From an uncultured Candidatus Bathyarchaeia archaeon (GTDB lineage: Archaea; Thermoproteota; Bathyarchaeia; 40CM-2-53-6), in NCBI GenBank assembly GCA_964601325.1, contig CAZRNA010000005.1, positions 1 to 53,893 on the forward strand: DNA of 53,893 nucleotides, in the 5' to 3' direction. The position numbers and the translations under genes are program-made. The notes under the pieces were generated by a model that searched no databases, had not been told where the DNA came from, and saw only the letters and a program-made list of their open reading frames with translations. Below, piece after piece: positions 1,246-18,640 of the stretch (within the stretch, counting starts at the first letter, position 1; every line of letters starts with the position of its first letter).

Positions 1246-1390
1246 GAACCGTCACTCCCCGAAGTGCCTACGTCTAATCATCTTTGACATATAAGCCAAG
1301 ATGTATGCATCTCACAGGTCACACTCGTTGAGAAGCCGTCGACTTCACAATCTCGCCCTCGCATGCCTTGTCGATCGAGTATGATGCATT

Positions 1391-1570
1391 TGGCGCGCGT
1401 CGTAATTGAACCGTCGTCTTTTCTTGTGTGGGTAGGCTGGTGGCCACACACAAAACAACCGATTCCAAGAGTTCAAATCCGGACGCCCGCAACATGAGAC
1501 CCACACACAAAATACCAAGAACGACGGTTAAAATCTGGACGCTCGCGACCGTCTGAATTTGAACGTCGTT
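1391..1570. repeat. repeat cluster 1: tRNA-3'-end-like units plus hairpin unit
   Basis: (-) GGTTCAATTACGACGCGCGCCA 1391-1412; hairpin 1421-1455; (+) GTTCAAATCCGGACGCCCGCAACATGAGACCCACACACAA 1471-1510; (+) GTTAAAATCTGGACGCTCGCG at 1527; (-) GTTCAAATTCAGACGGTCGCG within 1541-1564. Confidence 0.8.
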
Positions 1571-1656
1571 TCTATTGGGCGAGGCAAAGTATGATGAACA
1601 CTGTGCTGCTAAGAGAGTCGTCCAGCCGAATCGGTTTCGGAATACCTCTCCGGCTG

Positions 1657-1809
1657 CTAGACATTAGACTTCCCGCACTTGTTGCAGAATGTCTCGCTCT
1701 GAAGGATCCAAGCCCCGCAAAACTTGCACTTCCGAAGAGGGATGAATCTGTCGAAGACCTGGGAAATAGCTTCTCTTCGCGTACGATTTTGCGCGAGATC
1801 ACTTGACAT
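1657..1809 (-). CDS. small zinc-ribbon protein (50 aa), absent from ORF track
   Basis: Manual translation MSSDLAQNRTRREAISQVFDRFIPLRKCKFCGAWILQSETFCNKCGKSNV*; CxxCG-x9-CxxCG; GGGAGAGG SD just upstream of ATG. Confidence 0.75.
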   Translation of the reverse strand: MSSDLAQNRTRREAISQVFDRFIPLRKCKFCGAWILQSETFCNKCGKSNV

Positions 1810-1915
1810 TGCCTCTCCCGATCCCCGTCACACACAAGGACTATTACTCATCTCGTATGTGCAGTACATCATTACTCTTTTCCTCCAAACTGCAAACCGT
1901 CGCTAGGAGGAGTAG

Positions 1916-1960
1916 TTGTGTGTGGAGAGGCTCGTGCCAGCGTCGCAATTTGGACTCATG
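1916..1960 (-). repeat. repeat cluster 2: tRNA-3'-end-like unit
   Basis: Reverse complement CATGA-GTCCAAATTGCGACGCTGGCACGAGCCTCTCCACACACAA aligns with the 2960 and 3019 copies. Confidence 0.75.
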
Positions 1961-2160
1961 ATTCGTTTATATCTAGTATGGTAGTGCTTTCTCTTCGAGT
2001 TTTCGAATCAATTCCGGACTATCCCTCGCGTATCTGTCCACTACTTGAGAACACCCATCCTCCCGGGTCGCATTTGAAATGAGAGTAGACGGTTCGAGCG
2101 TCCATTAGTTGCGTAAACCTCTAGAGCCTGCGTAGATGATAGGCTAGGGAGGGAGTAGCT

Positions 2161-2346
2161 TTGGCTGAAGACAAAGGCGATGTTCTAGCTAAGATGGACG
2201 CCGCGGCGGAGGAAGCGGAAAGAGACCTCGGGACTCTCGACCGGGCAACTATTGAAGCTGTAGCTGCATGGTGGCTAAAGTGGTACATGAAAGCCGGACA
2301 TAAACGTCTTGGCCGGATCATGGTAAGAGTCGCAAAGAGCAAGTAA
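2161..2346 (+). CDS. small hypothetical protein (61 aa)
   Basis: Helical, with W..WY..AGHKRLGR motif; strong GGGAGGGAG SD before TTG. Confidence 0.7.
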   Translation: MAEDKGDVLAKMDAAAEEAERDLGTLDRATIEAVAAWWLKWYMKAGHKRLGRIMVRVAKSK

Positions 2347-2593
2347 AGTCTTCACTGTCACATTTCTTTTCTCTGCAACCCTTCTTGACAAGAAAAACGC
2401 GTGGATCTACCTCATAGTCCAACGAGTGAGACTCTCTTGTCAACCTCTGGGAAATGATATTTCCGAGGACTTGTAGCATGATTCTCGATTCAGGCAGACG
2501 ATACAGACACCGCACACATGCAAGCATCCGCTCTGGCAGACGGCAAGGCGTATTACGTGATGCGTCGTCTCTTTCATGTCAGAGGTGATTAGG

Positions 2594-2758
2594 ATGGGTT
2601 TCAGTGTGAAGTGTCCTATGTGCAGTGCTCAGATGAATGCTGAGACCTTGGACGACCTAATGAAGCAGGGGATGGAACACGCTAAGGCAGCTCATGGCAT
2701 AACCTCTGTCCCGCCAGCTGTTTTGGCACAGCTCCAGGCGGCTGTCAAGAAGACCTAG
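2594..2758 (+). CDS. DUF1059-family small metal-binding protein
   Basis: C..C....AET.D.LM....EHAK.AHG pattern; GAGGTGA SD favours ATG at 2594 over 2576. Confidence 0.75.
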   Translation: MGFSVKCPMCSAQMNAETLDDLMKQGMEHAKAAHGITSVPPAVLAQLQAAVKKT

Positions 2759-2826
2759 CTCGGCGACGCCGCAGCAGAATCCCCGTCTCCGATACTGTAG
2801 GAAGATCCGGGCGGGACCTGAGACTC

Positions 2827-3058
2827 TGTGTGGTCCTACGTGGGCGTCCTGATCTGAACCCTCATCCGTTGTCTTTTTGTGTGTGCGCACCAACCGTCGT
2901 CCGTCGCCTTTTCAGGTAATTCTTGGGGGGCAGGTGGTGCGCATACACACAAAACGAGAGTTCAAATTGCGACGCTCGCGCCATGAGACCCACACATAAT
3001 TATCCATCTCCCATGAGGGTTCAAATTGCGACGGCTGCACTAAGAGATCCACACAAAA
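2827..3058. repeat. repeat cluster 3: tRNA-3'-end-like units plus long inverted repeat
   Basis: (-) GTTCAGATCAGGACGCCCACGTAGGACCACACA 2827-2859; inverted arms TTTTGTGTGTGCGCACCA 2875-2892 / TGGTGCGCATACACACAAAA 2935-2954; (+) GTTCAAATTGCGACGCTCGCGCCATGAGACCCACAC at 2960; (+) GTTCAAATTGCGACGGCTGCACTAAGAGATCCACAC at 3019. Confidence 0.85.
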
Positions 3059-3194
3059 CGACTGCCTTGGAAGTCGCTAGGCGTGTACGCGCACAATTGG
3101 CCAGTTCAGGTCAACAGCGATAAGATTGATCAGTAGTCGAACAAACAGGGTCATCTAGCTGTGGAGTACAAACTGTCTGTCGGCGCGTTGCAAG

Positions 3195-4121
3195 ATGGGG
3201 AAGGTCAAGTTCGGTGTGCAGGCTTTGCAGGCGATGCCAGACTATGCAACTCTAAGAGAGGTTGTGTTGGAATGCGAACGGCTTGGTTTTGATTCAGTCT
3301 GGCTCTATGATCACCTTCAGTTCACCTACGGGCCGACCCTAGAGTGCTGGACAGTTCTGGCAGCGTTGGCTGAAGCAACGCGCAAGATACGAATTGGCCC
3401 TATGGTTACCTGCAACGCCTTTCGCCATCCATCCTTGTTGGCTAAGATGGCTGCTACGGTTGACATGGTTTCCAACGGAAGACTCAACTTCGGAATAGGG
3501 GCAGGATGGCACGAGGCTGAAGCTGCGGCTTACGGAATAACGTTCCCAAGAGCGGGTGTTAGAGTTGAAATGCTTGGTGAGGCACTTCAGATCATAAAGA
3601 GACTTTGGACAGAAAGCGAAGTGATCTTCAAAGGAAAGCACTATCAGCTTTGCAGGGCCGTTTCTCTACCGAAGCCAGTTCAGAAGCCTTATCCTCCGAT
3701 ATTGGTTGGAGGCGGTGGCGATAGGATGCTAAGACTCATCGCCAAACATGCAGACGCGTGGAACGGCGGTTTCACTAGCCCCGAAGGCTTCACGGAAGAA
3801 ATTGCGCGGTTGGACAAGGCTTGCAGGGAGACTGGTCGAGATCGTAATGAAATAGAGAATACTTTCCAGAGCCGCATTGTAGTAGCAGAGAAAGATGAAG
3901 ATGCTTTCAAGAGGGCAGAGGAGTGGAGAGAAGAACGCGAAGGAGCAGCAGATGAACCAGACTGGAAGTTTGCGGTAAAAGGCTCACCTCAGACTTGCGC
4001 AAGAATTCTGCAAACATACATCGATGTGGGAGTCACGCACTTCACCCTTCTTTTTGCAGATGCTCCGACACTGAAACCCCTTCAACTGTTTGCGAATGAA
4101 GTCATTCCAATGTTTCGATAG
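3195..4121 (+). CDS. LLM-class (luciferase-like), probably F420-dependent, oxidoreductase
   Basis: GFDSVWLYDH, RHPSLLAKMAATVD..SNGRL..GIGAGW, PKPVQKP.PPI.VGG.G motifs. Confidence 0.92.
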   Translation: MGKVKFGVQALQAMPDYATLREVVLECERLGFDSVWLYDHLQFTYGPTLECWTVLAALAEATRKIRIGPMVTCNAFRHPSLLAKMAATVDMVSNGRLNFGIGAGWHEAEAAAYGITFPRAGVRVEMLGEALQIIKRLWTESEVIFKGKHYQLCRAVSLPKPVQKPYPPILVGGGGDRMLRLIAKHADAWNGGFTSPEGFTEEIARLDKACRETGRDRNEIENTFQSRIVVAEKDEDAFKRAEEWREEREGAADEPDWKFAVKGSPQTCARILQTYIDVGVTHFTLLFADAPTLKPLQLFANEVIPMFR

Positions 4122-4235
4122 CATGCTTAGAGAATAAAGTACGCGTAATTGGCATTTTGATTTTGGCTTCTGCGATGAGACGTGTCTTCTTGGGGTTGGT
4201 GAGTATGGCACGGATCTGTTCGTCATTTGAGTTGA

Positions 4236-4272
4236 TTTGTGTGTGTGCGCATCATGAAGCCCACACACAAAA
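4236..4272 (+). repeat. repeat cluster 4: hairpin unit
   Basis: TTTGTGTGTGTGCGCATCATGAAGCCCACACACAAAA, between convergent genes. Confidence 0.75.
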
Positions 4273-4368
4273 GAAAAAGAACCGAAACGACCAACGGAAC
4301 AGTAACGGATGCGGAGGAATCTCACAAAGGCTCTTTCTTCTTACAGTTGAAACTCGTGGAGGGAGCGG

Positions 4369-5682
4369 CTATTGAGCAGCCTTAGGACCACTCGGTGCCT
4401 TCTCTAGTGAGATTGAGTAGACTTCTAATGGGGATTGTACGTTCTTTAGTTCTTGTTTTCCAAGGTCGATGATCTCATAATCGATCTTGTTCCAGACTTG
4501 ATCGTAGACCTGGCGTGAAATGCATATGCCGCCCGGCTCAGCCAACGGTTGTACCCGAGATGCGATATTGACGGCGTCGCCGAAAACGTCACCTTCACGA
4601 TGCACAACGTCTCCGAGGTGAATGCCAATCCGCAGTTGGGTCTCCTTTCCTGCGTGCGAAAGTGATCTTCTTTTTTGTAATGTTCTTTGGATGTCAACTG
4701 CACACCGGACAGCATCGAGAGTGCTGGCGAACTCCACTAGGAAGGCGTCTCCCATTGTCTTGATCTCTTGCCCTCGATGTTTCTCGAATATCGGGCGCAG
4801 TATGGTTTTCTGTTTCTCCAAGAGCTCAAGAGCTAGCACTTCATTCTCTTGTGCTAAGGCCGTGTAGCCTACAATGTCCGTGAACATAACGGCTGCTAGC
4901 CGTCGCTCATCTTTCGACGTAGGTCTCTTGTGAGGGAGATGAGATACAAGGATAACTTCGCCGCTATTCACTAACTGAAGCTGTCTCCAGCTCGAATCAA
5001 ATGTTCTGCCACGCATCGCCCTGATCCTGACGTTGTGTTCCATCCTTCCGCCCACGTCTTGGCTCTTGAAATCGATTATTCCATCACAGAGTGATTCGAA
5101 CTGCTTGTAGAACCCCTCCGAATACGCGCCCGCGACGAGGGAATGGATCATTATGTCCTCGCGGGTTCTCGCGAGTGGGACGAACCTGGTTCGCCATGCG
5201 TCGGCCATCTCTTTCTCTGAGTTGTATTGTAGTAAGACCGAGGTGTTGTCGTCGATGTGGAGGCGTCTCTTTTCGGGCTCGGGGACATCGTGCGGAGATT
5301 CCATGTCTTGCGCGGCGCTGATGTTCCAGTTTGATAGCACGGGATATTGCGTCTGATACGGTTGACGGCCTACTTTGGGTCTCTCAGGAACGCCTATTCC
5401 TGTGGTGGCCGTGTAAGTGTCCAGTAGTCTGAAGTTTCCTTCCCTCTCCAGCTTCTTGACATCTAGTCCAAAACGAGCCAGGGCTCCAAGAACCTCGTTT
5501 GGAATATGCTGAAATGTGTGATAGTCGGTTCTTGCTCCATTCCTCAATGCATGAGCTGCAATCGTCAACGATGTCTCGTACCAAAGCGAGTGTGGCTCGA
5601 ATTCAACAACTATGTTGAGACCGTACCGAAACCCACCCGGCACTAAGTCGGACAGTATCGGTAGGACAACGATATCGGACAA
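4369..5682 (-). CDS. degenerate KaiC/RAD55-like domain fused to class III adenylate cyclase
   Basis: N-half L..LVPGG.....I.V...D.YT...CDGIIDF......R.RAMRG (KaiC-like, Walker A lost). C-half [42 protein letters not shown]. Confidence 0.88.
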
Positions 5683-5780
5683 CCTAAGTCATCCTTTCGT
5701 TCGCATACCCTTTGAAGGCCATCAGACTTCTTGGCTATTTCTGTTTTGTGAACTTGAGCCCCGTGGTCCATCGTCTCTCG

Positions 5781-5816
5781 TGTGTGTGGGTAGGCTGGTG
5801 CGCACACACACAAAAA
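5781..5816 (-). repeat. repeat cluster 5: hairpin unit
   Basis: TGTGTGTGGGTAGGCTGGTGCGCACACACACAAAAA, near-identical to 1424-1455. Confidence 0.8.
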
Positions 5817-5914
5817 TCCAGCAAAAAGTAGCCTAGCGCGCGCTAGACCTGAACCGATTCTTTGACCGCATGATTCAGATTCCTAGCAAGCAGACCTTTG
5901 ATGAAGAAGCTTTA

Positions 5915-6565
5915 CTATTCGCCAAGTTTCTTTCTGAACTTGAGGAATCTGTAGCGTTTACTGGCTTCTACATAATTCCCCGACATGTGTTTACATTTGT
6001 CCTTTTTGGACACCGTCGCCCACTTTTGGAGGAAACCACCTCTCCGCTCGACTCTGAACCCTTCAAGTATTTTCTCCCACTCCGCGCGGTCTACAAAACC
6101 AAGAGGAGGAAGTGCACCTAGGCTGAGATGCGCCTGTCCTGTTGGCTTGAGGATGCGTTCTATTTCGTTCACAGCTAACTGTCTGTGATCAGCCATGTTA
6201 CATAATAGTCCATTCGCGAGCACAAAGTCAACTGACTCGGCTTTTATGAAGCTCAGGTCGGAGGCAGATGAAGCGTGCGCCTCAATGTTGCGGTAACCGC
6301 GTTCATTCGCCTTCTTCTCCAACGCTCTAATATGATTTTCATTCAAATCAACTGCGTAAACCTTTCCTTCAGGACCAACGCATTCGGCCAAAGCGAGCGT
6401 ATAGTAACCTAGGTTACACCCAAGGTCAGCAACCACCTGGCCGTTGCTCACGTAGGGTTCAACATGTCTTCTAGGGTCTTGAAATAATCTGGTTATTGGG
6501 TTCAGGCTTATTCGGTTTCTTGGCTGCTCAACGGCAACTTCATGTTTCTCTCTGCCCGCATCCAT
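5915..6565 (-). CDS. class I SAM-dependent methyltransferase
   Basis: VADLGCNLGYY motif I, VGPEGKVYAVD, SVDFV, RILKP.G. Confidence 0.88.
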   Translation of the reverse strand: MDAGREKHEVAVEQPRNRISLNPITRLFQDPRRHVEPYVSNGQVVADLGCNLGYYTLALAECVGPEGKVYAVDLNENHIRALEKKANERGYRNIEAHASSASDLSFIKAESVDFVLANGLLCNMADHRQLAVNEIERILKPTGQAHLSLGALPPLGFVDRAEWEKILEGFRVERRGGFLQKWATVSKKDKCKHMSGNYVEASKRYRFLKFRKKLGE

Positions 6566-6578
6566 TTAGTTACCCTAC

Positions 6579-7040
6579 CTAATGTGCTGAGCGCGCGTCT
6601 GTGCCACTGCTTCTAGAATTGGCATTGACCTTTAGGCCTGTCGACAGTGCAAGTGCACCGCCAACGATGCCGAGTATCGCGCCAACAAGGAATCCACCCA
6701 TGGATCCTCCGAAGAGGCTAACGATGGAGAAGACCAGTATGATACTTCCCCACCAAATGCAGCACGCGCGTAAGCCGTGCGTAGCTTCTCCGGGGCGAAT
6801 GTTAAGCATGATGGCAGAAATCAATACGATTATCCCTGATACTAATCCGAGAATCCATATGCCTGCCATTGCGCCGTATGGCTGTCCCATTATGCCACCT
6901 AATCCTCCCATCATCCAGCCGTATCCTCCACCCATCATTCCGGTCCCCCCAATCGTTGCATAGAGGCTGCCCAGAACAATCACGATACCAGCAACCAGTG
7001 AGACGATAGATGCTGTTGTCAGCTTCACAGTCTCTGGCAT
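6579..7040 (-). CDS. membrane protein with Gly/Met-rich loop
   Basis: 4 TM; GMMGGGYGWMMGG loop; C-terminal GGFLVGAILGIVGGALAL. Confidence 0.8.
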   Translation of the reverse strand: MPETVKLTTASIVSLVAGIVIVLGSLYATIGGTGMMGGGYGWMMGGLGGIMGQPYGAMAGIWILGLVSGIIVLISAIMLNIRPGEATHGLRACCIWWGSIILVFSIVSLFGGSMGGFLVGAILGIVGGALALSTGLKVNANSRSSGTDARSAH

Positions 7041-7100
7041 CTTTTCATCTCTGCGAAGATTTCAACAGAAATAGCCTCACTTCCATTCATACTTAACTGC

Positions 7101-7285
7101 TTTGTGCAGGACTGCTGGTGCACACACGGAACCAAAGCTCAACTCGCGATGCCCGCATCAATGAAAATCCTCTCCTCTTGTGCTGCTAGTTCTTGGTAGT
7201 GGTGCGCACCATGATACCCACACACACAATTCAAACTACGCAACGACGATTCAAATTGCGACTCCCGCACCAAGCGACTCACACT
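7101..7285. repeat. repeat cluster 6
   Basis: Partial hairpin 7101-7127; (+) GCTCAACTCGCGATGCCCGCATCA 7137-7160; TTGGTAGTGGTGCGCACCATGATACCCACACACACAA 7193-7229; (+) ATTCAAATTGCGACTCCCGCACCAAGCGACTCACAC at 7249. Confidence 0.8.
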
Positions 7286-7391
7286 CACGACTGCTCCTAT
7301 CCTACGAACAAAGAACGGGGAATACCACACAGTAGAGAGACATGAAATCGTAGTCTCAGAATGTAAGAGCGAAGGAAAGGGTGCGCATTAA

Positions 7392-7703
7392 CTATCGTTT
7401 CGGGCTGAACCTTATCACTCGGTCAAACACAAGTTCGTTCATCTCAATGATCCGACCTATGGAGCAATCATCCTAATTCACTTGGATAGCGGAAGGTACG
7501 TGGCCTATAGCTCGATCTGCACTCATGCGGGTTGTCAGGTGCAGTTTGATCCTTCCGCACGCGACATAGCCTGCCCTTGCCATGGCGCATTGTTTGACCC
7601 GTACAATGGTGCTCAAGTGCTTCGTGGACCCGCTCGAGCGCCGTTACAAAGCATTCCAATTCAGTATGATGCTTCAACCGGGAACATCTACGTAACCGGC
7701 TAA
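7392..7703 (+). pseudogene. Rieske [2Fe-2S] domain fragment, probably 5'-truncated
   Basis: CTHAGC and CPCHG boxes intact. Homologous-looking sequence (FVHLNDPTYGAIILIHL) extends upstream of TTG 7482 to an in-frame TAA at 7389 with no ATG/GTG start and no Tat/TM leader. Confidence 0.65.
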
Positions 7704-7801
7704 GCTACAGCACTCGTAGGAGTGGGCCACTGTTGCTTCGCGAAACTGCATGGCTCGTGCGACGCTTTCCTATCATTCAGCAATGCTGACAGGTCATAGG
7801 T

Positions 7802-8449
7802 TTAGGAATCGGATTCGTGTGCTCGTGCTGTTGTTCTGTTAGTCACTAGCGTGGTCTGGGTTATGATCAGTGACACAAACCAAAGATAGAATCGCAAGGG
7901 TATGTTCTGTATCGTCAGAGTCCAAAAGATGGGAAGGATAGTAAGCGCGAAAAGTAGAGCTGCGATCAAACGACTGATTTGAATACGTTTGTAATTGGAT
8001 AAGAGGCTCTTGTGGATTAGGCCCTTCTCCTCCACGGTCAATTGATGCGTGAAGAGGGCGAGAATCGCCATTAACCCTGCCATGTCTAGTGCGAAAGCTA
8101 CTGAAGCGGCGTTCAAGAGAATTTCATGGCCTGCGAGGTCAAAGACAGCGTTCAAGTAGAACAGGTACGGTTCAATAGAGACGAAAAAAAGCAGGATCAC
8201 ATTCAGTGTGATTGTAGTTGCGTCTTCCATCGGGAGAACGGACATGATGCTCGTGTAGCTGATCCACACAGTGATCAGAATCAGGAAGCTGAATCCAAAT
8301 TCTACTATGTCGTAGACAATTCCCACTGGAGAGCTGGGCAGTCTAGAGATCAGGGAGATCGTGCCTACCGAGAGAGCTAGACCGAACACTAGGTCTGAGA
8401 GAGATTCGATTCGTGGCCTGGGACGCTTCGAGTTCGCAGACAAAGCCAT
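7802..8449 (-). CDS. TMEM175-family potassium channel-like protein
   Basis: N-terminal RIESLSDLVFGLALS (variant of RxxxFSD), SF......W..Y, LN.ILLFFV...PY; 6 TM. Confidence 0.82.
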   Translation of the reverse strand: MALSANSKRPRPRIESLSDLVFGLALSVGTISLISRLPSSPVGIVYDIVEFGFSFLILITVWISYTSIMSVLPMEDATTITLNVILLFFVSIEPYLFYLNAVFDLAGHEILLNAASVAFALDMAGLMAILALFTHQLTVEEKGLIHKSLLSNYKRIQISRLIAALLFALTILPIFWTLTIQNIPLRFYLWFVSLIITQTTLVTNRTTARAHESDS

Positions 8450-8725
8450 TGAAACCTCGACTAGGTATCGGCAGAGGCTACAAAAGGCCTCTTACAGATG
8501 AACAGCTCCTGCTTTCTCCACGGCATTCCTCAGTTGCAAATCCAGTTGTGTTAAGGTTTTGGAATCGAGCACTTTCTCAATGACAGGCTACTCAATCCAT
8601 ACGTTTTTTATCGACTTTCCACCGGCGCGCGATAAGGAGCGGCCGAAAAGGTTCTGAGCCTTGGGGTTTACATCCACGATGCGGTTCTTCTTTATCTGAC
8701 TTCAGCTTGGCTGCTGAAGAGTCAA

Positions 8726-10327
8726 ATGAGCAACGTTAGAGTCAGCGCCGGCTTTGTGCTCATCGTTATGCTGGTAGCTAGTGTCAGCCTCGCAACAGAG
8801 GTGTCACCCATCTATGCGCAACCGCCATCCAAGATTCAGCACATCATTTTCATAGTGCAGGAAAATCATTCGTTCGACAATTACTTCGGAACGTATCCCA
8901 ATGCTAACGGTTTTCCATCTGCGTTGGCAATTCCGTTAGACCTCAACCAGACGACCCTTGGATCCGTCAGCCCCTTCCATCTAGATGTGAACCAACAAGT
9001 CTTGATTGTTGGTGACGAGCTTCCGCCCGGGATTTCTGACCCTCCAGAGTTAGATCCCGTTGACGCTACCGCTACGGCGCCTTATCATCTGAACAGCGAA
9101 TCGATCGGGACAGACATCAACCATTCTTGGCAAGTGGCGCATATGGCATATGACAACGGCAAGATGGATGGGTTCGTCGCCGCAGAGAAGACTACTTTAA
9201 CAATGGGTTATTACGACAACCGTGACATACCGAACTACTGGGCCTATGCAGATAACTTCGTGTTAGATGACAATTTCTTCTCATCGCTCATGGGTCCTAG
9301 TCTTCCGAATCATCTGTACATTGTATCTGGCACCAACGGCCCAACGACTCTGGATGAGAAGTGGATCTTGGAGGGTGGAGTGGTGAATAATCCTGGGAAC
9401 ACTGGGTTAGGAGTTTTGGAAATGCCCAGTGGGATTTCATTCTCGTGGGGAACTCTCGCTCAGGAACTCAGCAACAGTAATGTGCCATGGATGTGGTATA
9501 CTGGGTCCGCCAATCCGCTCAAACCCACAATCTGGGACGTGCTGCCGCTCTTCACATATTTCCAGAACCATCCGAATGAACTCAACGACCACGTCAAGAA
9601 CACCCAGAACTTTGTCTCAGATATTCAGAACGGAAAGCTCCCAGCGGTTTCTTGGATTATCCCAGGGGGATGGCTTCCGCCAAGCTTGCCTCAGGTATGT
9701 CTACTCGGGGGAGGGGCGAGTGAGCATCCACCTGCAAGAAGCGATTGTGGGATGGGCTATGTCACGTACCTGGTCAACCATGTGATGGATAGTCAATACT
9801 GGCAATCAACGGCTATCGTGATAACTTGGGACGATTACGGAGGATTCTACGATCATGTTCCACCACCACAGATCGACAAGTACGGCGAAGGATTCAGAGT
9901 CCCAACCCTCGTGGTCTCACCATGGGCAAAGCACGGCTTCGTTGATCACACGATGTACGAGTTCGGCTCGCTCTTGAAGCTCGCAGAAGTCAACTTCAAC
10001 CTCCCAACGTTGGGTACACGAGACGTAAACGCGAACGACATGATGAACTCCTTCAACTTCAATCAGCCGCCTCAACCAACGCTAGTTGAACCTACAAACT
10101 TTGTCGGCCCAGCCGCAGCAGCCAGCACGAGCATCCCCAAGAACACTCAGACCTCCGCAAGCACAACATCACACACAACAGAATCTATCGCCGGCACGAA
10201 TCAAATGTACCTGCAAGACCAAGTCTACCTCATAGCAATAATCGTCGTCTCGGCAGCCGCCATCTTGGCAGTCACCGTTCACAACTCGAGGCGCCGCCAA
10301 TCCTCAAGAAATGAATCCGCGAGTTAG
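8726..10327 (+). CDS. secreted, membrane-anchored phosphoesterase (phospholipase C/acid phosphatase family)
   Basis: Signal peptide; [53 protein letters not shown]; S/T linker and C-terminal TM. Confidence 0.92.
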
Positions 10328-10346
10328 CATCGTCGAGGGATCAACG

Positions 10347-10487: not shown

Positions 10488-10511
10488 GGGTGTATATCAC
10501 CCTTGAGGGTG
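10466..10511. promoter_or_regulatory. tandem GGGTG-N5-CACCC palindromes (candidate operator)
   Basis: GGGTGTATTCCACCC 10467-10481 and GGGTGTATATCACCC 10488-10502 (21 bp apart), plus half-site GGGTG at 10507. Confidence 0.4.
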
Positions 10512-11007: not shown

Positions 11008-11199
11008 GCGGACGTTTACAAGGTTGCGTTAGCCTGTGAGCACACAACTCAGTGGTTCAAATCCATTCGCCCGCACCAAGAGACCCACCACCACCAAAAT
11101 GAAGGTTCAAATTTCGATGCTCGCATCAAGAGAGCCACCACACCACCACCAAGAAATACCTAGACAACGACGAGCGAGGGGTCAAATTACGACGATCGA
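11008..11199 (+). repeat. repeat cluster 7, including the most tRNA-like copy
   Basis: AGTGG-TTCAAAT-CCATT-CGCCCGC-ACCA-AGAGACCCACCACC 11051-11092; GTTCAAATTTCGATGCTCGCATCAAGAGAGCCACCAC at 11105; GGTCAAATTACGACGATCG at 11180. Confidence 0.85.
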
Positions 11200-11301
11200 G
11201 CGGGCATGACGAGAAGGTAGACCAAAGGAAGCGACTGGAGGAATTGAAGAAGCTATGGTTCTATGAGATAGTACGAGGATAGCTCAGTGCAATGAGACTG
11301 T

Positions 11302-11697
11302 CTAATCCGGAAGCGGTCTGTGATCGCGCTGCAGTTGGCTGCCATATTTTATGAGAAGGGCTTGTCCTGTTTCGAAAGTTGGATAAATGGCCTCCAGGAT
11401 CTTCCAGAATCTCTTTGTGTGCTTTTTCGTGAGTGTATGCGCGATTTCATGAGCGATTATGTACCTTAAAGCACTCTTCGGCAAACGCGCTGCATTCAGC
11501 TGCACCAGTATTTTGTTGCCTTTCAGTTTGGCTATCCTATGTTTCTTGCCATCAACGCTTTTCACGACCTCGAAATCAAGCGTTCCAAAAACCTCGACCC
11601 TTCTTTCTCTTCTTATCTGCTCGTAAATGTCGCAGAGCCTCGAATAGAGCACTTCATTCTGCCCCTGGTTGGCAGCTTCATTGCTTGTTCTGTTCAT
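11302..11697 (-). CDS. M48/YgjP (DUF45)-like zinc metallopeptidase domain protein, short form
   Basis: YIIAHEIAH...HTKRFW; 4-bp overlap with hsdR stop, a common position for this family. Confidence 0.85.
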   Translation of the reverse strand: MNRTSNEAANQGQNEVLYSRLCDIYEQIRRERRVEVFGTLDFEVVKSVDGKKHRIAKLKGNKILVQLNAARLPKSALRYIIAHEIAHTLTKKHTKRFWKILEAIYPTFETGQALLIKYGSQLQRDHRPLPD

Positions 11698-14600
11698 CCC
11701 ATTCCCTCCATTGCTCCGAACAGTTGCTCGGTGAGTTCGTCGATCTTGTCGCGGTGTTCCCTGTAGTCAGACAAAATGATGAATCTTGTTTCAGATTTCA
11801 CCTTACGTCGTACATCTCTCTGAAGTTGCCACCCTTCGAAGAGCAGACCTGATTCTTCAAGATGGTCCTTAAGATGGTTGATGAAAACTATTGCTTTCTG
11901 TTTGTCCGCGTCGGGAAGTACGGTCTTGAGTGCCTCGTACAAAGGATACTTATCTTTCCCAATTTCATTCTCTTCGCTTTTCCATTGCGTTATTCTTTCA
12001 GAGAAATCCAGCGCCTTTCTCACTGCTTCCTCGGTGTCAATCCTTCTCGTTCTAAGTTCCTCGTAGGTTCTCTCGACTTCTCTACTCAGGTTAAGAAAGA
12101 ACGGTGAGTTAGAATGCGTCGTCACTTCGTGCTGGATGTTGGTAATGACATCTATCGCAGCGCCCATTGTTCTAGGTTTAGACCTCTTGAGGTGTTCAAC
12201 ATATTCTGCGTCAATGCGCAGAGTCGGATATGTATCTTCGATGTCTTTGACGTCGATTGTTTGTTGTATGAGTTCGAATGTCTTCTTCGAGAGTTCTATT
12301 ATTTTCAGCTCGTCTACATCTTTCTTCTTGAATCGCTTGTTGTATGCAACAAGTATCTTGACGAGCCATGTGTAGTCAGAGAGATACGGCTCAAGAAATT
12401 CGTCTCCACTGAGCATTTCGTAAGATTTCATTAGCGCTCTCATGGTAGTTTCAAATTGCTTAGCTATCATTGGATTCACAAGAACATGCATCGCGCTCTC
12501 TAGACTTTCTCGGGTATCCTCCTTCTTCACAGACTCGAAAATCCTCAGAGCCCTCTCAAGCAACTCTCTGAATTCGTCTTTCTCCTTGTCGAGCTGCCTA
12601 ATGACCACACGGATGTCTCTTGCTTCGCTTGCTTCGAATTTCTGGAACGCTTTCTGCATCTCTGCAAGGACGCCAATATAATCGATAATCAAGCCGAACT
12701 TCTTGTTCAGATACGGTCTATTGGTTCGTGCTATGGCTTGAAGAACTCTGTGCTCTTTCAACGGTTTGTCGAGGTACATCGTCCAAAGGACAGGAGCGTC
12801 AAATCCCGTGATCAGCATGTCAGTTACTATCAGAATCTTGAGTTCTTTGCCTTCCTTGAAGTTCTCAATGATCTTGTCATGAATTTCCTTTTGGTCTTTG
12901 GTGCCGTATTTCTTCCATAGTCTTTGGAAGTATGATCTGACAGGTTCCCTGTCAGCATAGGTCATCACAACCTCTGACCAATTCGCCGGCAGAATTTGGT
13001 CTAACGCATTCTTGTAACGGATACACGCATCTCTGTCTATGGTTACAACCATTGCCTTGAGGCCGGTGGGCTCGACTATGTCCTTGAAATGATGAGCTAT
13101 GTCTTCGGTGATTGCCTCTATCCGCTCCTTTTTCTTGACAAACGCGACGATTACCTTGACTTTTTTCCTGATTTCCTTCTGTTCTGCTTTCGATCGTGTC
13201 TTCAGCTCCTCCTCCTCGAATTTCACGAACTGTCGATACTGTATCTCGTTAAGATGATACTCAGGGAGTTTCGGCTCATAGGAGAGTTCGACAGTGAATC
13301 CATCCTTCAATGCGTCAAGCATCGAATACCTGTCGAGGTAGAGTTCTCCTCTCGGACAGAACTTCTGGAACGTGTTCCTTTCTGGTTTAGAAAGAGGCGT
13401 GCCCGTAAAACCGAAGATGAAGGCTTTCTTGAAAACACTTTTCATCACCGTTCTGAATTTCCCGTATTGGGTTCTATGCACCTCGTCCGCGAGAACAATC
13501 ACGTTCTCCCTTCTGATTTCTATCTTGCCGCTTTCTCTTTTCAGCTTCGCAAATTCCTTCGGTCTGAACTTTTCGATGGTTACTAGGAAGATCCCTCTTT
13601 TTCCTTCCTTCCCCCACTTCAGAACCTCAATCAGGTCGTCCACGTGCTCAATCTTCTCTATCGGCACTTCAATGAAACCAAAATCCTTCTCAATCTGCTC
13701 TTCAAGGTTCTTCCTGTCAACCAGCACGAAAATGCTCGGCCTTTCGGTCTCCGTCGAGTGATAGAGCTTCCACGCGGAGAAGGCCATCGTGTAGGTTTTT
13801 CCAGAGCCTTGCCAGTGCCATATCAGACCGAACTTGCTGTTTTCTTTTTTCTTCCCTAGATTGCTAGTTACTCTTCGATAGATCTTCTCCGATGCTCTGA
13901 ACTGCATATACCTTGTCATTATCTTAGTGGACTTGTCTGTCTCTTTCCTGATGAAAGTGAAATTCTCAATCATGTCGAGGAGATTTGTCTCTGACAAGAG
14001 ACCGTACACTGTGGTTTTCAGAATGTCGTCTTTGAAATCCTCGGCTTTGAAAGGGTACGGATCTTTCCATTCGCTAAGAAAATCCTTGTTCTCCTCGTTG
14101 AAGCCATTCGGGAAATAGCGAGTCTTGATGCCGTCGGTGGCTATCGAATACTGAACGTACTTGAAAAGCTCAGGAGCATCTCTCTCGTATCTCTTTATCT
14201 GGCCGTAGGCAGTCGTCCAATCGACGTTCTCCTGCGTCGGACTCTTGCATTCGATACAAACTAGGGGGATGCCGTTCACTAGAAGAACAATGTCCGCTCT
14301 GATATTGCCTTTAGAGCCTTCAACCCTGAATTGGTTCGTGACAACAAACTCGTTGTTGTCCGTATGTGACCTTGTGAGGTCGAATAGTCTGACGACTTTC
14401 TCCTCGTTTTGCTTCCGTATGGGGACAACCAAACCATTTCTGAAAATGTCGAGAAACCTTCTGATTCCTTCGAGATTCGAAGGTATGGTTCGCAGCGAAA
14501 CACCGACAAAGTCAAGATCGGCATCTGTGAAGTCTATATCTGGATTGAGCTTTCTAATAGAGTTCCTCAGGTCTTCTGGAACCAGTGGTTCCTCGAACCT

Positions 14601-14708
14601 ACTCTTTCGCCTTGCCTCCATTTCCTTTTGAGTTAGGTACTTCCATCCGACCTTCTTGAGTTCTTCAATGATGAAATCCTCAACAGTGCCTTTTTCGCTG
14701 TAAGTCAT
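11694..14708 (-). CDS. hsdR: type I restriction enzyme R subunit
   Basis: DIVLLVNGIPLVCIECK nuclease motif; WHWQGSGKT; DEVHR; FTGTP; MLITGFDAP; LQAIARTNR. Confidence 0.97.
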   Translation of the reverse strand: MTYSEKGTVEDFIIEELKKVGWKYLTQKEMEARRKSRFEEPLVPEDLRNSIRKLNPDIDFTDADLDFVGVSLRTIPSNLEGIRRFLDIFRNGLVVPIRKQNEEKVVRLFDLTRSHTDNNEFVVTNQFRVEGSKGNIRADIVLLVNGIPLVCIECKSPTQENVDWTTAYGQIKRYERDAPELFKYVQYSIATDGIKTRYFPNGFNEENKDFLSEWKDPYPFKAEDFKDDILKTTVYGLLSETNLLDMIENFTFIRKETDKSTKIMTRYMQFRASEKIYRRVTSNLGKKKENSKFGLIWHWQGSGKTYTMAFSAWKLYHSTETERPSIFVLVDRKNLEEQIEKDFGFIEVPIEKIEHVDDLIEVLKWGKEGKRGIFLVTIEKFRPKEFAKLKRESGKIEIRRENVIVLADEVHRTQYGKFRTVMKSVFKKAFIFGFTGTPLSKPERNTFQKFCPRGELYLDRYSMLDALKDGFTVELSYEPKLPEYHLNEIQYRQFVKFEEEELKTRSKAEQKEIRKKVKVIVAFVKKKERIEAITEDIAHHFKDIVEPTGLKAMVVTIDRDACIRYKNALDQILPANWSEVVMTYADREPVRSYFQRLWKKYGTKDQKEIHDKIIENFKEGKELKILIVTDMLITGFDAPVLWTMYLDKPLKEHRVLQAIARTNRPYLNKKFGLIIDYIGVLAEMQKAFQKFEASEARDIRVVIRQLDKEKDEFRELLERALRIFESVKKEDTRESLESAMHVLVNPMIAKQFETTMRALMKSYEMLSGDEFLEPYLSDYTWLVKILVAYNKRFKKKDVDELKIIELSKKTFELIQQTIDVKDIEDTYPTLRIDAEYVEHLKRSKPRTMGAAIDVITNIQHEVTTHSNSPFFLNLSREVERTYEELRTRRIDTEEAVRKALDFSERITQWKSEENEIGKDKYPLYEALKTVLPDADKQKAIVFINHLKDHLEESGLLFEGWQLQRDVRRKVKSETRFIILSDYREHRDKIDELTEQLFGAMEGMG

Positions 14709-15971
14709 TCAATCAACCTTAATTCTTACTTTCCCTGTGAGAAGTAGATCCATCAATGCCTGCTTGGCCTTCTCTAACTTTGCCTTTTGGTTTCTTTCGA
14801 GTTCGAGTTTCTTGGAGATAACCGAGAGATTCTCAGCGATCTTCTGCTGTTCTCGGACAGGCGGTATCGGCACTCTGAATAGTTTTAGTGTGCCAAGATA
14901 GATATTCGTTCGACCTACATCGCTGCTTGGATTCACCAACTGATTGAGCAGTTTGTTTCGCAAAAAGACCAAACAGTGCTGCATATACCGCGGTTCAAAA
15001 GATCCATCTTTAGGCAAGATTGCGCCAATAGCTTGGTTAGTTGCGGAATCGATTCCCAAGATTGCTGTCTTGCTAACGGTCCCTCGACCATATAGGGCCA
15101 TTAGCAATGTTCCCTTTGGAAAGACTTTCGCGCTCGACTTCTCCAATCCTAATTTAGTAATTCTTTCTTCGGTGTCGCGAATTTCCCCATCATTAAGTTC
15201 GCCAGACTTGAGCCATGGAACAGTCCCATTCCAATACTCGCGCTTCTTCCTGCTTGGTGTCCCTCCACTTTCCAGCTTGGCAACATCTCCGAGTCTGGAG
15301 GCGTCCCAATTTTCGGGAATCCTTCCAATCTCAGAATCCTTGAACTCTTTGTGTCCTATTCCTCTTGTTAGAAGTTTCTGCATCAGAGCTTTCTTGAGAC
15401 GTTCAGCTGTCGTGATGATGTCGTTGGTCTTCTGGATAGCCCTATCAACATTCCAGAGGATTTCGGACGCCCTTTGCTGCTCTCGCCGTGGAGGAACAAC
15501 AACGCTCAGACCTTCTAGATCACTCTTGACTATTGCCTTGAAAGTTGAACCTTTTCCAAGTCTATCTATCGCGCTCTTGATTAGCTGCAGATAGTAGAAG
15601 TAAAACAAATGGTCGGCAGTCTTCTGATTGAATCGTATTGCACCCAAGCCTCTTCCTATGCACAATTTGTACGGTGTCAGGTTGACATCTCCGACGGGAG
15701 CCCTGACAGACATCAAAATGTCATCTTTCTCTGCCATCTTCAGCGGATCAGAACAGTATACTACTGGGGACGGATAGATTTCACCGAACTCCATCTTTCC
15801 CTGCAGAAAAGGCAGGCCGACGCCTTCTTTGTTGTAGGTCGACGAGGGAGGCGATTGTCCCATGATTAATCTGGCCGCATCACCAAGCCTAACAACTTCC
15901 CAATCATTGGGAATGTTTCCGAGCGATGTCTCCCTGGTTTCATTCTCCCTATAGAAGACATCTGCTCTCAT
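14709..15971 (-). CDS. hsdS: type I RM specificity subunit
   Basis: Two TRD halves (IP.DW...RLGD.A; PP..EQ..I...L) separated by conserved helices (KKALMQKLLT / KQALMDLLLTG). Confidence 0.96.
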   Translation of the reverse strand: MRADVFYRENETRETSLGNIPNDWEVVRLGDAARLIMGQSPPSSTYNKEGVGLPFLQGKMEFGEIYPSPVVYCSDPLKMAEKDDILMSVRAPVGDVNLTPYKLCIGRGLGAIRFNQKTADHLFYFYYLQLIKSAIDRLGKGSTFKAIVKSDLEGLSVVVPPRREQQRASEILWNVDRAIQKTNDIITTAERLKKALMQKLLTRGIGHKEFKDSEIGRIPENWDASRLGDVAKLESGGTPSRKKREYWNGTVPWLKSGELNDGEIRDTEERITKLGLEKSSAKVFPKGTLLMALYGRGTVSKTAILGIDSATNQAIGAILPKDGSFEPRYMQHCLVFLRNKLLNQLVNPSSDVGRTNIYLGTLKLFRVPIPPVREQQKIAENLSVISKKLELERNQKAKLEKAKQALMDLLLTGKVRIKVD

Positions 15972-15974
15972 TTC

Positions 15975-16556
15975 TCAAATCACTTTCAAAACATTGTCAC
16001 GAAAAGTCTCTCGCTGAGCCTTATCCCTCAGGCTAAATGTGTTTAGCAGCTTACCAATCGCGCCTATGAGATCAGCGTCGCTTGACAGAAAGTACTTCAC
16101 GTTATTCGATATCGCCGTTGCGACTATAAGCGCATCTTGTGGCCGAAGGAGATGATTGTAAAGTAGTTTGTACAACTCCTCATAGTTCCAAGATTGGATA
16201 GAAGGAAGGGTGAGAACTTCGATATCGTTCTTGGTAATGAAGTCACGGACTTTGTTCGCCACTTTGTCTTTGTCTTTCTCGGCTATCTGCCTGTATAGTT
16301 CTTTGTCTCTGTTGAGTCTGCCGATTATTTCATCACCTGACATTCGATCGTTGATGCATTCTCCTATGAAGCGGATCTGGAACTCGGTGTCTATTAGTTC
16401 CGCGATAGTGAAAACCGATGTGGCTAGGAGAATTCTGCCTTTACTATGATAATGTAGCAATTGAGCGAGAATGTCTATGACATCTTGATTCCTCTTTTCT
16501 AGATAATCTAGGATCACATTCGTGTCCAAGAAGAAAATATCGGCCATCTCACTCAA
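15975..16556 (-). CDS. PIN-domain (VapC-like) nuclease embedded in the hsd operon
   Basis: FFLDTNVILDYL, TIAEL, LRPQDALIVATA, FLSSDADL (all four acidic catalytic positions present); overlaps hsdM stop and ends 3 bp before hsdS. Confidence 0.88.
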   Translation of the reverse strand: MSEMADIFFLDTNVILDYLEKRNQDVIDILAQLLHYHSKGRILLATSVFTIAELIDTEFQIRFIGECINDRMSGDEIIGRLNRDKELYRQIAEKDKDKVANKVRDFITKNDIEVLTLPSIQSWNYEELYKLLYNHLLRPQDALIVATAISNNVKYFLSSDADLIGAIGKLLNTFSLRDKAQRETFRDNVLKVI

Positions 16557-18093
16557 TCCCTCTTATCTGATTCAGCGCCTCCTCAAGCTCATTGTTGATT
16601 CTGTTCCTGTCCTCCTCTAGCTTCTTCAGGTCAGAGTAGACTTGGCTGACACTGACCCTCTCTGTCTCTTCAATCGGCATTACATAGAGGGACACATTCA
16701 GATTGTAGTCATTCTTGGCGAGTTCCTTCCTCTCAACGGCTCTGGAGAATCCCGAAACCTCCGAGAATTTGTCGTAAGCGTTTGCGATTTTCCTTATGTT
16801 ATCTGTTGACAGTGCATTCAATCGTCTGACAGATGGATGGGTCACAAAGTCGTTCGACGCATTGATGAAGAGTATCTTGTTCAGTCTCTCCTTCGGCTTC
16901 TTCCTGTTGAAGACGACGATTGCTCCAGGTGCTCCTGTGTTGTAGAACAGTTTTTCCGGAAGAAGAATAACGCATTCAATCCAACCTTTCCCTACAATCT
17001 TGCTTCTGGCAACCTTTTCCTGTCCTCGCCTAAACAGACACCCGTTGTCGACTACAACCGCAACTCTACCCTGCTCCTTCGCCGACGCAAGCATGTGCTG
17101 AACCCAAGCCCAATCAGCACTACTTTGAGGAGGATAACCGCCTAGTGTGAACCTTTCGCGGAAATTCGCTGCCTTGAGTCTTCCTTCATTATAGCCGTCC
17201 TGGTTCCAAGGAATATTCGCGATGACCACATCGAACTGCTTCAGTTTGCCGTTGTCCTTGAATCTGGGATTTTCAAGTGTATCTCCGTTTTCAAGGTGCG
17301 CGTTCTTGATATCATGAAGCAGTAAGTTCATCTCGCCTACGGCGTAAATCTCGGGATTTCTCTCCTGCCCATACAAGAACAGTCTTCGCGCTTCTTTCTC
17401 TCCATATTTTGGATTCTGAGCCAAGTGCAAATAGGAGATTATCAACATGCCACCGGAGCCACAACACGGGTCATACACATACTCGCCAGGTTTGGGGTCT
17501 AGAATCTCGACCATCAGTTTGATGACTTCTCTGGGGGTGTAGATCTCGCCCTCCTTTGCGCGTTCGGGTGCAAATTTCATGAGTATATGCTCGTATGCAT
17601 CTCCGAGCACATCGGGGGAAACTTCCTCGCCAGCCAGATCGTATTTGTTGAAAAGTTCCACGAGTTGATGCAGTAGATCCCTATTCTCTTGATTCCTAGC
17701 GAACTCTAAGAAGTCGACTCTATTGATGACGCCCTGGAGTTCGCTGTTCAGCTTCGCAATCTCGCCAATCGCTGTAGCGAGTTTCTCTGGAAGAGTTTTG
17801 ACGTCTTTAGTAATCTCATCCCAATGGAACTGTCTAGGAATGTTGAACGTATATAACTCGGCTTTCTCCATCTCTTTCTCAATTTCTTTCTCCGACATTC
17901 CTTCGATTTTCTTCAGTCGCTGCCTGTAACGGTCTCTTTCAATCCTCGAAAGGTCATTTACTCTCTTGAGGAAGAGCAGTACAAGAATGAACTTGTAATC
18001 CACGGCTGTCCTAATCAGATCTGCGGCTTTGTCGACGAGTGAATTCAACTCGTCTCGTGTGACTTTCCTCGGCAGCAGTTCACGTTGAGTCAT
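16549..18093 (-). CDS. hsdM: type I RM N6-adenine methyltransferase subunit
   Basis: LGDAYE, GEIYTPREV, VYDPCCGSGGML, LYGQE, ANIPW (motif IV variant), LFYNTG. Confidence 0.97.
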   Translation of the reverse strand: MTQRELLPRKVTRDELNSLVDKAADLIRTAVDYKFILVLLFLKRVNDLSRIERDRYRQRLKKIEGMSEKEIEKEMEKAELYTFNIPRQFHWDEITKDVKTLPEKLATAIGEIAKLNSELQGVINRVDFLEFARNQENRDLLHQLVELFNKYDLAGEEVSPDVLGDAYEHILMKFAPERAKEGEIYTPREVIKLMVEILDPKPGEYVYDPCCGSGGMLIISYLHLAQNPKYGEKEARRLFLYGQERNPEIYAVGEMNLLLHDIKNAHLENGDTLENPRFKDNGKLKQFDVVIANIPWNQDGYNEGRLKAANFRERFTLGGYPPQSSADWAWVQHMLASAKEQGRVAVVVDNGCLFRRGQEKVARSKIVGKGWIECVILLPEKLFYNTGAPGAIVVFNRKKPKERLNKILFINASNDFVTHPSVRRLNALSTDNIRKIANAYDKFSEVSGFSRAVERKELAKNDYNLNVSLYVMPIEETERVSVSQVYSDLKKLEEDRNRINNELEEALNQIRGIE

Positions 18094-18435
18094 TTTGTCC
18101 GTCTCCTCATAGAACTTCTACATGGTATTTCCTAGAGTGAGAATAGATCGTTTGTAACGAATGCTCGCAAACGGTTATCATGTCTTGCTTGAGAGCCCCA
18201 GCCCTTTCACAACCCCCCGTAGAGGTTCGACTGCTTATGATCGGAATCGCAATCGTGTCTATCACACTCGAGCCGCCAGCAACAATTCCTGCCTTTCGCA
18301 TCTCAACATCAACAACCCACCAACCCAGAGAACTAGCGCCAGAGCATAGTCCACGTCATTGCTTATAGAATCAGAGGCCTCCAAGGACAGAACCACCGAT
18401 TCGATCTCGTTCTTGCCCAAGGAGGAAGAATGTGG

Positions 18436-18498
18436 CTGGGCTTGTTGCCGCATGAGTTGCGGATACCTCTGGTTTCGATTAAGGGTTACACGGACGTA
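18436..18498 (+). pseudogene. eroded histidine-kinase (HisKA H-box) fragment
   Basis: LGLLPHELRIPLVSIKGYTDV matches the HELRTPLxSIxGY H-box; no HATPase domain follows. Confidence 0.5.
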
Positions 18499-18584
18499 GG
18501 GCATAACAAATCTCTACTTCGTTATCCCCCACCTACCTCGATGAGGGGTACAATGATTCTCAGCCTAGATTTCGTGAAAGTCTG

Positions 18585-18640
18585 TTTTTCGTCGTCGTCG
18601 CGCGCCAAGAGACAGCGCGCGCCAAGAGACCCGACGACGA
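18585..18640 (+). repeat. repeat cluster 8: hairpin variant with internal 15-bp duplication
   Basis: TTTTTCGTCGTCGT-CGCGCGCCAAGAGAC-AG-CGCGCGCCAAGAGAC-CCGACGACGA; the core matches the family tail CGCRCCAWGAGACCC. Confidence 0.7.

Follow-up and report, generated by a model that had tools for sequence, protein, structure and literature searches.

Bathyarchaeia are abundant, uncultured archaea whose accessory-gene turnover is little understood. A stretch of DNA from a peat and sediment lineage among them, 53,893 nt of contig CAZRNA010000005.1 (the window), raises the question of what the short repeats between its gene modules are and whether they take part in that turnover. The source is a metagenome-assembled genome (MAG) of 1.85 Mb in 108 contigs, 90.6% complete. 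A preliminary description of the window had likened these repeats to the 3' end of a tRNA and had proposed either a tRNA-derived element resembling repetitive extragenic palindromes and bacterial interspersed mosaic elements (REP/BIME), or the recombination sites of a cassette-accretion system. We show that the repeats, hereafter units, form a real family, descend from the 3' end of tRNA-Gly, are not themselves tRNA genes, promoters or terminators, and are break points of homology. That they derive from integrase attachment (att) sites and act as recombination joints between gene modules is a reading to which we give about an even chance.

The family was modelled with nhmmer from a seed of eight window copies and one iteration, with a significance cut-off of E<0.01 and the reversed genome as control. 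Genes were called with a heuristic based on open reading frames (ORFs) and codon usage, and all genomes compared were MAGs. The iterated model found eight window copies at E<0.01 and 52 matches on 16 contigs of the whole genome, one of them a genuine tRNA-Gly, against no match in the reversed genome even at E<1. The head pattern GTTCAAATNNNGACG, with up to two mismatches, matched the window 15 times compared with 5.1 +/- 2.2 in shuffled sequence (0 of 100 shuffles reached 15). Eleven of these matches are copies that the preliminary description had placed, and its positions hold on reading the sequence; the remaining four (8978, 18655, 29019 and 41389) are chance-like. Five of the copies noted earlier are degenerate, with seed-model E values of 0.03-3.3 (1520-1547 and 7139-7160 and 11175-11198 on the plus strand; 1544-1564 and 1391-1417 on the minus strand). 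The tail motif alone was not above chance in the window (18 matches, 15.1 +/- 3.9 expected). Between 11.2 and 53.9 kb of the window the model gave no match, the next one lying at contig position 56710, outside the window. All units of the window fall within 1..22033; the family as a whole is genome-wide and genus-wide and not peculiar to this region. With up to two mismatches the core occurs 33 times in the source genome and 3-69 times in each of the nine other genomes of the genus (9/9). Beyond the genus, four of five genomes from a sister genus carry it, and it occurs 14 times in G034, which belongs to another family. Two more genera in the family of the source genome lack it (g2, 0/6; g3, 0/3), and the reversed core pattern gave no match in any genome searched. 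Exact-pattern matches in a genome collection came almost entirely from MAGs of Bathyarchaeia/Bathyarchaeota.

Alignment of 260 units, of which 80 loci had been retrieved with the core pattern itself, revealed a core of 25 nt (positions 0-24, GGTTCAAATyNNGAyGCyCGCACCA) carrying 1.1-1.9 bits per position, with positions 10 and 11 nearly free and information falling from about 1.5 to about 0.1 bit right after CCA. The same conservation profile was obtained from 52 units found by the hidden Markov model (HMM) alone in the source genome and in G008, a close relative. A weak leader, aYGAs, precedes the core and a weaker tail, N4-ACC-(CA)n-AAA, follows it, with (CGA)n in a subfamily; the consensus proposed earlier is therefore refined to aYGAs-GGTTCAAATyNNGAyGCyCGC-ACCA-N4-ACC-(CA)n or (CGA)n. 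A and C strongly predominate on the unit strand. Single units have no fold (z -0.62 to +1.08 in six foldings, as single-stranded DNA, of five full units), and neither inverted termini nor target-site duplications were seen at them. Related hairpin elements, in which a CGCACCA-tail segment lies between (TG)n and (CA)n arms, reach z -3.4 and -3.9. The hairpin of REP/BIME elements is found only in the hairpin-type relatives at 4236-4274 and 5780-5815, and the REP/BIME-like structure suggested in the preliminary description is not seen in the units.

The parent is tRNA-Gly, one of the two candidates (Gly or Leu) named on the strength of the tRNA 3'-end geometry. CCA-encoding tRNA-Gly genes end in GGTTCAAATCCCGGCGGCCGCACCA, a sequence that recurs unchanged in genomes far apart within the order. 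In the source genome it stands at C69:404-428, in the only tRNA matched by the unit model at E<0.01; this tRNA-Gly is identical to the unit consensus at about 23 of 25 positions, so that a host tRNA resembling the core does exist. The flank of its tRNA-Gly(UCC), GCCTCCCA, is similar to the commonest unit tail, GCCTACCCA. The units themselves are a different matter. ARAGORN found no tRNA in the window and no Rfam family, RF00005 included, reached the gathering threshold there. Genuine tRNA genes of this genome (C69:294-428, C26, C39) carry one or more introns, all encode CCA and have five of five T-stem pairs, the tRNA-Gly on C69 being about 135 nt long; 231 of 253 units have three or fewer of the five, and acceptor complements upstream of them show only slight enrichment. 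ARAGORN and RF00005 find only 10-16 tRNAs in this 90%-complete genome because its tRNA genes carry introns and encode CCA, and units are a source of false partial-tRNA calls. One unit core (11054-11078) forms the 3' end of a pseudo-tRNA (11008-11078, 71 nt; GCGGACG ... CGCCCGCACCA) with paired acceptor and T stems, scoring 17.9 bits with RF00005, below the gathering score. Pieces of split or permuted tRNAs were considered and rejected: the units lack a conserved leader, and a search of 10 genomes of the genus, with an exact pattern that covers intron-free spacing only, found no intact tRNA having a GCGGGC...GCCCGCACCA acceptor.

Units might nevertheless function as RNA, their T-loop, acceptor strand and CCA being read by tRNA enzymes (RNase Z, the CCA-adding enzyme, T-loop modifiers) or pairing in antisense with tRNA-Gly, with a role in RNA processing or regulation. 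The sequence features that suggest this are the end of conservation exactly at CCA, the mature tRNA end, the A+C-rich unit strand, the pseudo-tRNA with its paired stems, and the encoding of CCA by every genuine tRNA gene of the genome. The T-stem and acceptor counts given above, the lack of a fold and the lack of an Rfam family at threshold argue against it, and the association with islands and synteny breaks described below has no RNA-level rationale. There is also no orientation bias to neighbouring genes: the gene downstream of a unit lies on the opposite strand in 112 cases and on the same strand in 87, and the gene upstream in 101 and 98 cases, respectively. We consider a function as RNA very unlikely. 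The downstream counts, together with two copies at 1527-1564 that face each other, also led us to reject a promoter with a head resembling a B recognition element and TATA box, and the upstream counts to reject a terminator.

A direct link to integration comes from the close relative. On G008:C2 an integrated element of 5,067 bp (about 5 kb; G008:C2:282207-287299) comes after an intact tRNA-Gly gene that has an intron. An exact 26-nt direct repeat, GGGTCCAAATCCCGGCGGCCGCACCA, bounds the tRNA-Gly and the element, which ends in the second copy; the repeat corresponds to unit positions -1 to +24. The element encodes a tyrosine integrase (PF00589, 50.6 bits, with SAM-like N-terminal and archaeal phage integrase domains). 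Because the duplication covers positions -1 to +24, the unit core is almost coextensive with a genuine att site of this genus, in agreement with the att-core idea of the preliminary description. A block from the T-loop to the tRNA 3' end, as expected of such a site, is what the unit core comprises; direct copies around an integrase-bearing element together with an intact tRNA were found at G008:C2 only, not in the window. In G034, moreover, the canonical unit tail AGGTACCCACACACACC comes immediately after one genuine tRNA-Gly (Rfam, 39 bits), and a unit bearing this tail lies 175 nt downstream of another tRNA-Gly and is oriented like it. The G008:C2 element also carries an RNase H/RVT_3-like gene, and its integrase ORF overlaps the right att copy.

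The units lie where gene content differs between relatives. Coding sequence makes up 78% of the sequence pool; 257 of 270 unique units are intergenic. Window positions 22,033-40,000 are collinear with G008:C5:185,479-204,578 at 91-94% identity; to the left of this block both genomes have an island that shares few modules, at 79-87% identity and in different order. On G008:C5 (346 kb), 22 of 26 units fall within 208.9-261.3 kb, the counterpart of window 1-22 kb, adjoining the same 18-kb core block. Synteny was compared over 865 kb of G008 (~45% of one close relative) for intergenic regions with at least one matched flank: a single G008 alignment spanned none of nine regions with units and 205 of 301 without them (Fisher p 4.6e-5). 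The expected link of units to gene gain, gene loss and synteny breaks was therefore observed, and the islands hold the units. Clustering of 462 unit-flanking ORFs gave no cluster larger than five members, so that the units border a very diverse accessory gene pool, and a gene family linked to them was rejected. Units are also a source of assembly breaks; 21 of 51 units lie within 2.5 kb of a contig end, with 29% expected.

Homology ends inside units or at their edges. Among 253 units no two distinct loci have both flanks in common, every pair appearing to do so consisting of neighbours in one array, and at least 13 pairs have one long flank in common. The one-sided homology ends at -10 in one case, just after the T-loop in two (C10 versus G008:C5:163254; C33 versus G008:C5:246634), and at CCA in three to four, including three loci homologous to 10716-11078 that diverge exactly at 11078; other ends lie inside the tail, at +30 to +45, where likeness among tails blurs some junction positions. 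Within the window, homology of the module encoding a 61-aa protein and DUF1059 to G008:C5:218575-219556 begins at 1918, in a unit. A 2407-nt contig of one metagenome (X4) follows the window from 19470 down to 18617, in tail-only copies, and continues with ~1.5 kb unlike the window. In four other metagenomes 11340-18676, the restriction-modification (RM) operon, was almost uncovered, with the sides covered in X4 and X5; no joining contig was listed and we count this as no finding. Among the contig joints listed, most fall at units or hairpins; they were rejected as evidence of excision, as their sides of only 20-41 letters could be produced by other repeat copies. A 3.3-kb segment of the relative (G008:C1:384352-387626), with genes for a nitroreductase, a thioredoxin and a TMEM175-like protein and with two units but no transposase, is absent from C40:7295-7303 of the source genome and is flanked by a 9-bp direct repeat, TTTAACTCT; it may be an insertion in one genome or a deletion in the other.

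We favour the reading of units as att-derived joints because of the core extent, the genuine att site of a congener, the position beside tRNA-Gly in G034, the confinement to islands and the breaks of homology. Units would then be lineage-specific DNA repeats of ~55-65 bp whose ancestor may have been the attachment-site core, from T-loop to CCA end, of integrative elements targeting tRNA-Gly, and which would act at the DNA level as joints between genes in flexible islands. Recombination between two units would insert, delete, invert or swap the module in between. The units would serve as substrates of an enzyme, which could be an integrase from a passing mobile element, possibly with relaxed specificity; alternatively, ordinary homology-driven exchange over the ~25-45 bp common to units might have the same effect. 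The agent may be a transient integrase, a dedicated enzyme or homology alone, given that there is no resident recombinase, the junctions vary and the units form tandem arrays.

Several observations weigh against this reading. Recombinase profiles (PF00589, PF00239 and PF07282 across 41 relatives; PF01797 and PF00078 in five genomes of the genus) gave no PF00589 match at E<=1e-5 in the source genome, G003-G006 or G034, all of which bear units, and did find integrases in all genomes of the two unit-free genera (g2, 6/6; g3, 3/3); across the 41 relatives integrase presence does not track units. Serine recombinase was found in none of the nine other genus genomes. TnpB occurs in five of the nine and in unit-free genera as well, Y1 transposase (PF01797) in three of five genus genomes, being absent from the unit-bearing G008 and G004 and present as a C-terminal fragment in the source genome, and reverse transcriptase (PF00078) in one of five; none of these tracks units. 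No recombinase family profiled, the Y1 REP-associated tyrosine transposase (RAYT) included, co-occurs with the units, and an active cassette-accretion system of the kind envisaged earlier is not supported. The junctions extend from -10 to +45 and do not fit one fixed crossover point. Unit orientations are mixed (G008:C5), and the modules are small, 0.4-7 kb, without hallmark mobile-element genes. The exact core occurs in only one of ~2.9 million IMG/VR viral contigs; that record (G304), with two typical units (888-912 and 2475-2499), both within 2.5 kb of one end, is a provirus fragment, 33% complete, without an integrase match, and was rejected as a viral attP. The resident tRNA-Gly differs from the consensus A at position 13 (190 of 260 units) and C at position 16 (227 of 260), and the conserved unit positions all equal the 3' end of tRNA-Gly(GCC) in two MAGs of Methanomassiliicoccales; no tRNA-Gly of that type was found in 10 genus genomes or 301 Bathyarchaeia genomes with an exact pattern that covers intron-free spacing only. 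Finally, 51 of 63 close pairs of units are direct tandems, arrays that simple integration and excision do not yield. Their spacing is 39-142 nt (39-75 nt in 47 of the 51), arrays hold two to four units, and array neighbours are no more alike than random pairs (0.44 versus 0.51 at variable positions). Recent local duplication as the source of the arrays was rejected on the same figures, and mini-arrays like clustered regularly interspaced short palindromic repeats (CRISPR) were rejected too, as the inter-core stretches share the simple-repeat tail and arrays have only two to four units.

The match to the methanogen lineage also bears on a bolder reading, integron-like cassette exchange in which a recombinase outside PF00589, PF00239, PF01797 and TnpB would act on the 25-bp tRNA-Gly-derived core with its simple-repeat tail, the site perhaps stemming from a mobile element of co-resident Methanomassiliicoccales. 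We regard this reading as distinctly unlikely. As in integrons and in clusters of attC sites lacking an integrase (CALINs), which have been reported in archaea, short sites here separate small and very diverse modules, the array is hypervariable and keeps one place on the chromosome, and such arrays may lack a nearby integrase. According to one study, CALINs outnumber complete integrons (10.1101/2022.02.06.479319). In contrast to integrons, the source genome has no IntI and no match to PF00589, genes and sites are in mixed orientations, no single crossover point is seen, and the units lack the hairpin of attC. The sequences GTTCAAAT / ATTTGAAC do not seem to fit the R'/R'' consensus of integron attC.

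Alternatively, the units may be selfish, non-autonomous mobile repeats of REP/BIME type or like MITEs (miniature inverted-repeat transposable elements), derived from a tRNA-Gly 3' end, mobilized by a trans-acting transposase, inserting beside existing copies and gathering in islands where they do no harm. Such an origin would agree with a copy number that is high and very uneven among congeners (3 to 69), the intergenic location in both orientations, head-to-tail arrays of two to four whose members are as unlike as independent insertion would make them, position-specific conservation of the kind that enzyme recognition would yield, and the existence of a hairpin-forming relative (z -3.4 to -3.9). 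REP/BIME elements with their RAYT are likewise short, high-copy and extragenic, lie in small clusters and share with the present family a hairpin-forming variant. They differ in that the main unit here is not palindromic, its clusters are direct rather than alternating, copies are concentrated in islands and Y1 transposase does not co-occur. Further objections are that single units have no hairpin and that neither terminal inverted repeats nor target duplications were seen, that none of the nine unit-bearing regions is collinear with G008 and no filled-versus-empty site was found in the 865 kb compared, that G008 and G004 lack Y1 transposase and the source genome has only a fragment of it, that TnpB does not track units, and that no gene family is linked to them. 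On balance we think a selfish repeat unlikely.

Tandem arrays and conservation could also reflect binding of a host protein, such as a silencer or insulator of foreign DNA or a chromosome organizer, in which case the likeness to tRNA would be only historical. Clustered binding sites take the form of such arrays, and an asymmetric, unstructured 25-bp motif with invariant positions alternating with free ones, orientation independence, concentration in acquired DNA and persistence in genomes without any detected recombinase would all suit them. There is no candidate protein, however; copy number differs by a factor of more than 20 inside a single genus, and both the homology breaks within units and the att-site extent of the motif would be left unexplained, making sites of this kind most improbable.

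For the reading of units as att-derived joints, the closest known counterparts are the partial tRNA genes at attL and attR that remain where elements with a tyrosine integrase have entered archaeal tRNA genes. Williams is said to have distinguished, in 2002, sublocation classes of integration into tRNA genes. The unit core, from T-loop to CCA, has about the extent of the 26-nt duplication in G008 and borders acquired DNA, as such partial genes do. In contrast, units number 30-70 copies per genome rather than one per integration, have a consensus of their own with two conserved positions that depart from the resident tRNA-Gly, and occur in both orientations, in ~60-nt tandem arrays and with a conserved simple-repeat tail, with no tRNA or integrase near them in the window. 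Repeated use of att copies can build composite islands with internal att sites. In Thermococcales, an archaeal integrase is reported to recombine chromosomal copies and rearrange genomes (PMC5495485). Here, however, the modules are 0.4-7 kb without mobile-element genes, there is no resident integrase, and accretion would not lead one to expect tandem sites 60 nt apart. Partial tRNA genes in archaea have been interpreted as footprints of integration by mobile genetic elements (PMC9897764). We found no prior description of tRNA-derived repeats in Bathyarchaeia, although the supplementary tables of PMC9897764 and of a paper on archaeal integrons may list cases.

With these repeats as markers, the flexible islands of at least one genus and the edges of exchanged gene blocks can be recognised by sequence; defence genes, among them a type I RM operon, belong to those blocks. 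If units are recombination substrates, a tRNA att site would have turned into a dispersed, reusable joint, an archaeal counterpart to attC of different origin. The match of the core to tRNA-Gly of a methanogen lineage hints at mobile-element traffic between archaeal phyla that share habitats. The positions of all units and related elements in the window are given in Table 1.

Table 1. Units, related elements and the flexible island in the window
Positions	Strand	Feature	Evidence
1..22033	.	Flexible island with all window units	G008 collinearity at 91-94% identity starts at 22033
1391..1417	-	Degenerate unit head GGTTCAATTACGACGCGCGCC	Sequence; seed-model nhmmer E 0.81
1425..1455	+	Hairpin-type relative: (TG)n, inverted CCA-plus-tail segment, (CA)nAAAA	Weak fold, z -0.65
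1461..1512	+	Full unit, core 1470-1494	nhmmer E 8.9e-9
1520..1564	.	Two degenerate units head-on; overlap is a 38-nt palindrome	E 0.032 and 0.19; DNA fold -11.4 kcal/mol, z -2.3
1913..1966	-	Full unit; left edge of the 61-aa and DUF1059 module common to G008	nhmmer E 9.2e-7
2824..2872	-	Degenerate unit	nhmmer E 0.0037
2874..2954	.	Half hairpin (2874-2895) and hairpin-type element (2924-2954)	Right edge of G008-shared module at 2895
2946..3003	+	Full unit, core 2959-2983	nhmmer E 1.3e-11
3006..3062	+	Full unit, tandem, 59 nt after unit 2946..3003	nhmmer E 4.6e-10
4236..4274	+	Hairpin-type element, CGCATCA-tail loop	DNA fold -10.4 kcal/mol, z -3.9
5780..5815	+	Hairpin-type element; copies 94-97% identical in at least six other genus genomes (31-41-nt matches)	Fold z -3.4
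7103..7234	+	Hairpin-like element, degenerate unit (7139-7160), tail-only copy (7202-7234)	Seed E 3.3
7238..7291	+	Full unit, core 7248-7272	nhmmer E 6.9e-9
10716..11078	+	363-nt multi-copy non-coding element ending in pseudo-tRNA	Pseudo-tRNA, see text
11042..11139	+	Two tandem full units (11042-11095, 11094-11139), cores 11054-11078 and 11104-11128	nhmmer E 5e-7, 4e-9
11175..11198	+	Degenerate third unit	1 mismatch to GTTCAAATNNNGACG; seed-model E 3.1
18590..18640	+	Tail-only copies within (GTC)n/(GAC)n hairpin	Repeat comparison, sequence reading

Within the last of these elements, the tail-only copy at 18615-18632 has 89% identity to the 18-nt reference. Exactly at the border between the island and the core block lies a different repeat of ~100 nt (21915-22015), with copies 72-83% identical in at least five genomes of the genus and at C33:1790-1909 of the source genome.

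Other non-coding elements occur close to the tandem units near 11 kb. Copies of the 10716-11078 element are found in G008 (C1 and C5), G009 and G003, and ORFs across it give low-complexity peptides. The 77-nt element at 10638-10714, which contains two evident hairpins (..CTCGTTCCTTTCGGGGAG.. and GTATGCGCTGACGCATAC), may be a small RNA or a terminator; copies 90-94% identical lie at C86:824-900 and C86:6229-6305 of the source genome and at G008:C1:136721-136797, and Rfam gave no match at E<=10. Upstream of it, 10378-10632 is a multi-copy non-coding element whose homology in at least six other loci stops at 10629-10632 (..TTTTCTAC). Its last 60 nt look by eye like domains V/VI of a group II intron, which remains a guess that we did not adopt, with no Rfam intron model at E<=10 and reverse transcriptase in only one of five genomes. 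That sole reverse transcriptase is encoded at C36:926-1615 of the source genome (PF00078, 137 bits, 587-aa frame), with two TnpB-type matches on the same contig.

Among the genes of the island, 11302-18093 on the minus strand is a complete type I RM operon bracketed by units, encoding HsdM (16549-18093), a PIN-domain protein, HsdS, HsdR (1004 aa) and a YgjP-like metallopeptidase. The gene at 4369-5682 encodes a fusion of a KaiC-like ATPase with an adenylate/guanylate cyclase domain, and its first 570 nt have many paralogous matches of 65-81% identity in islands of the source genome, G002, G004 and G008.

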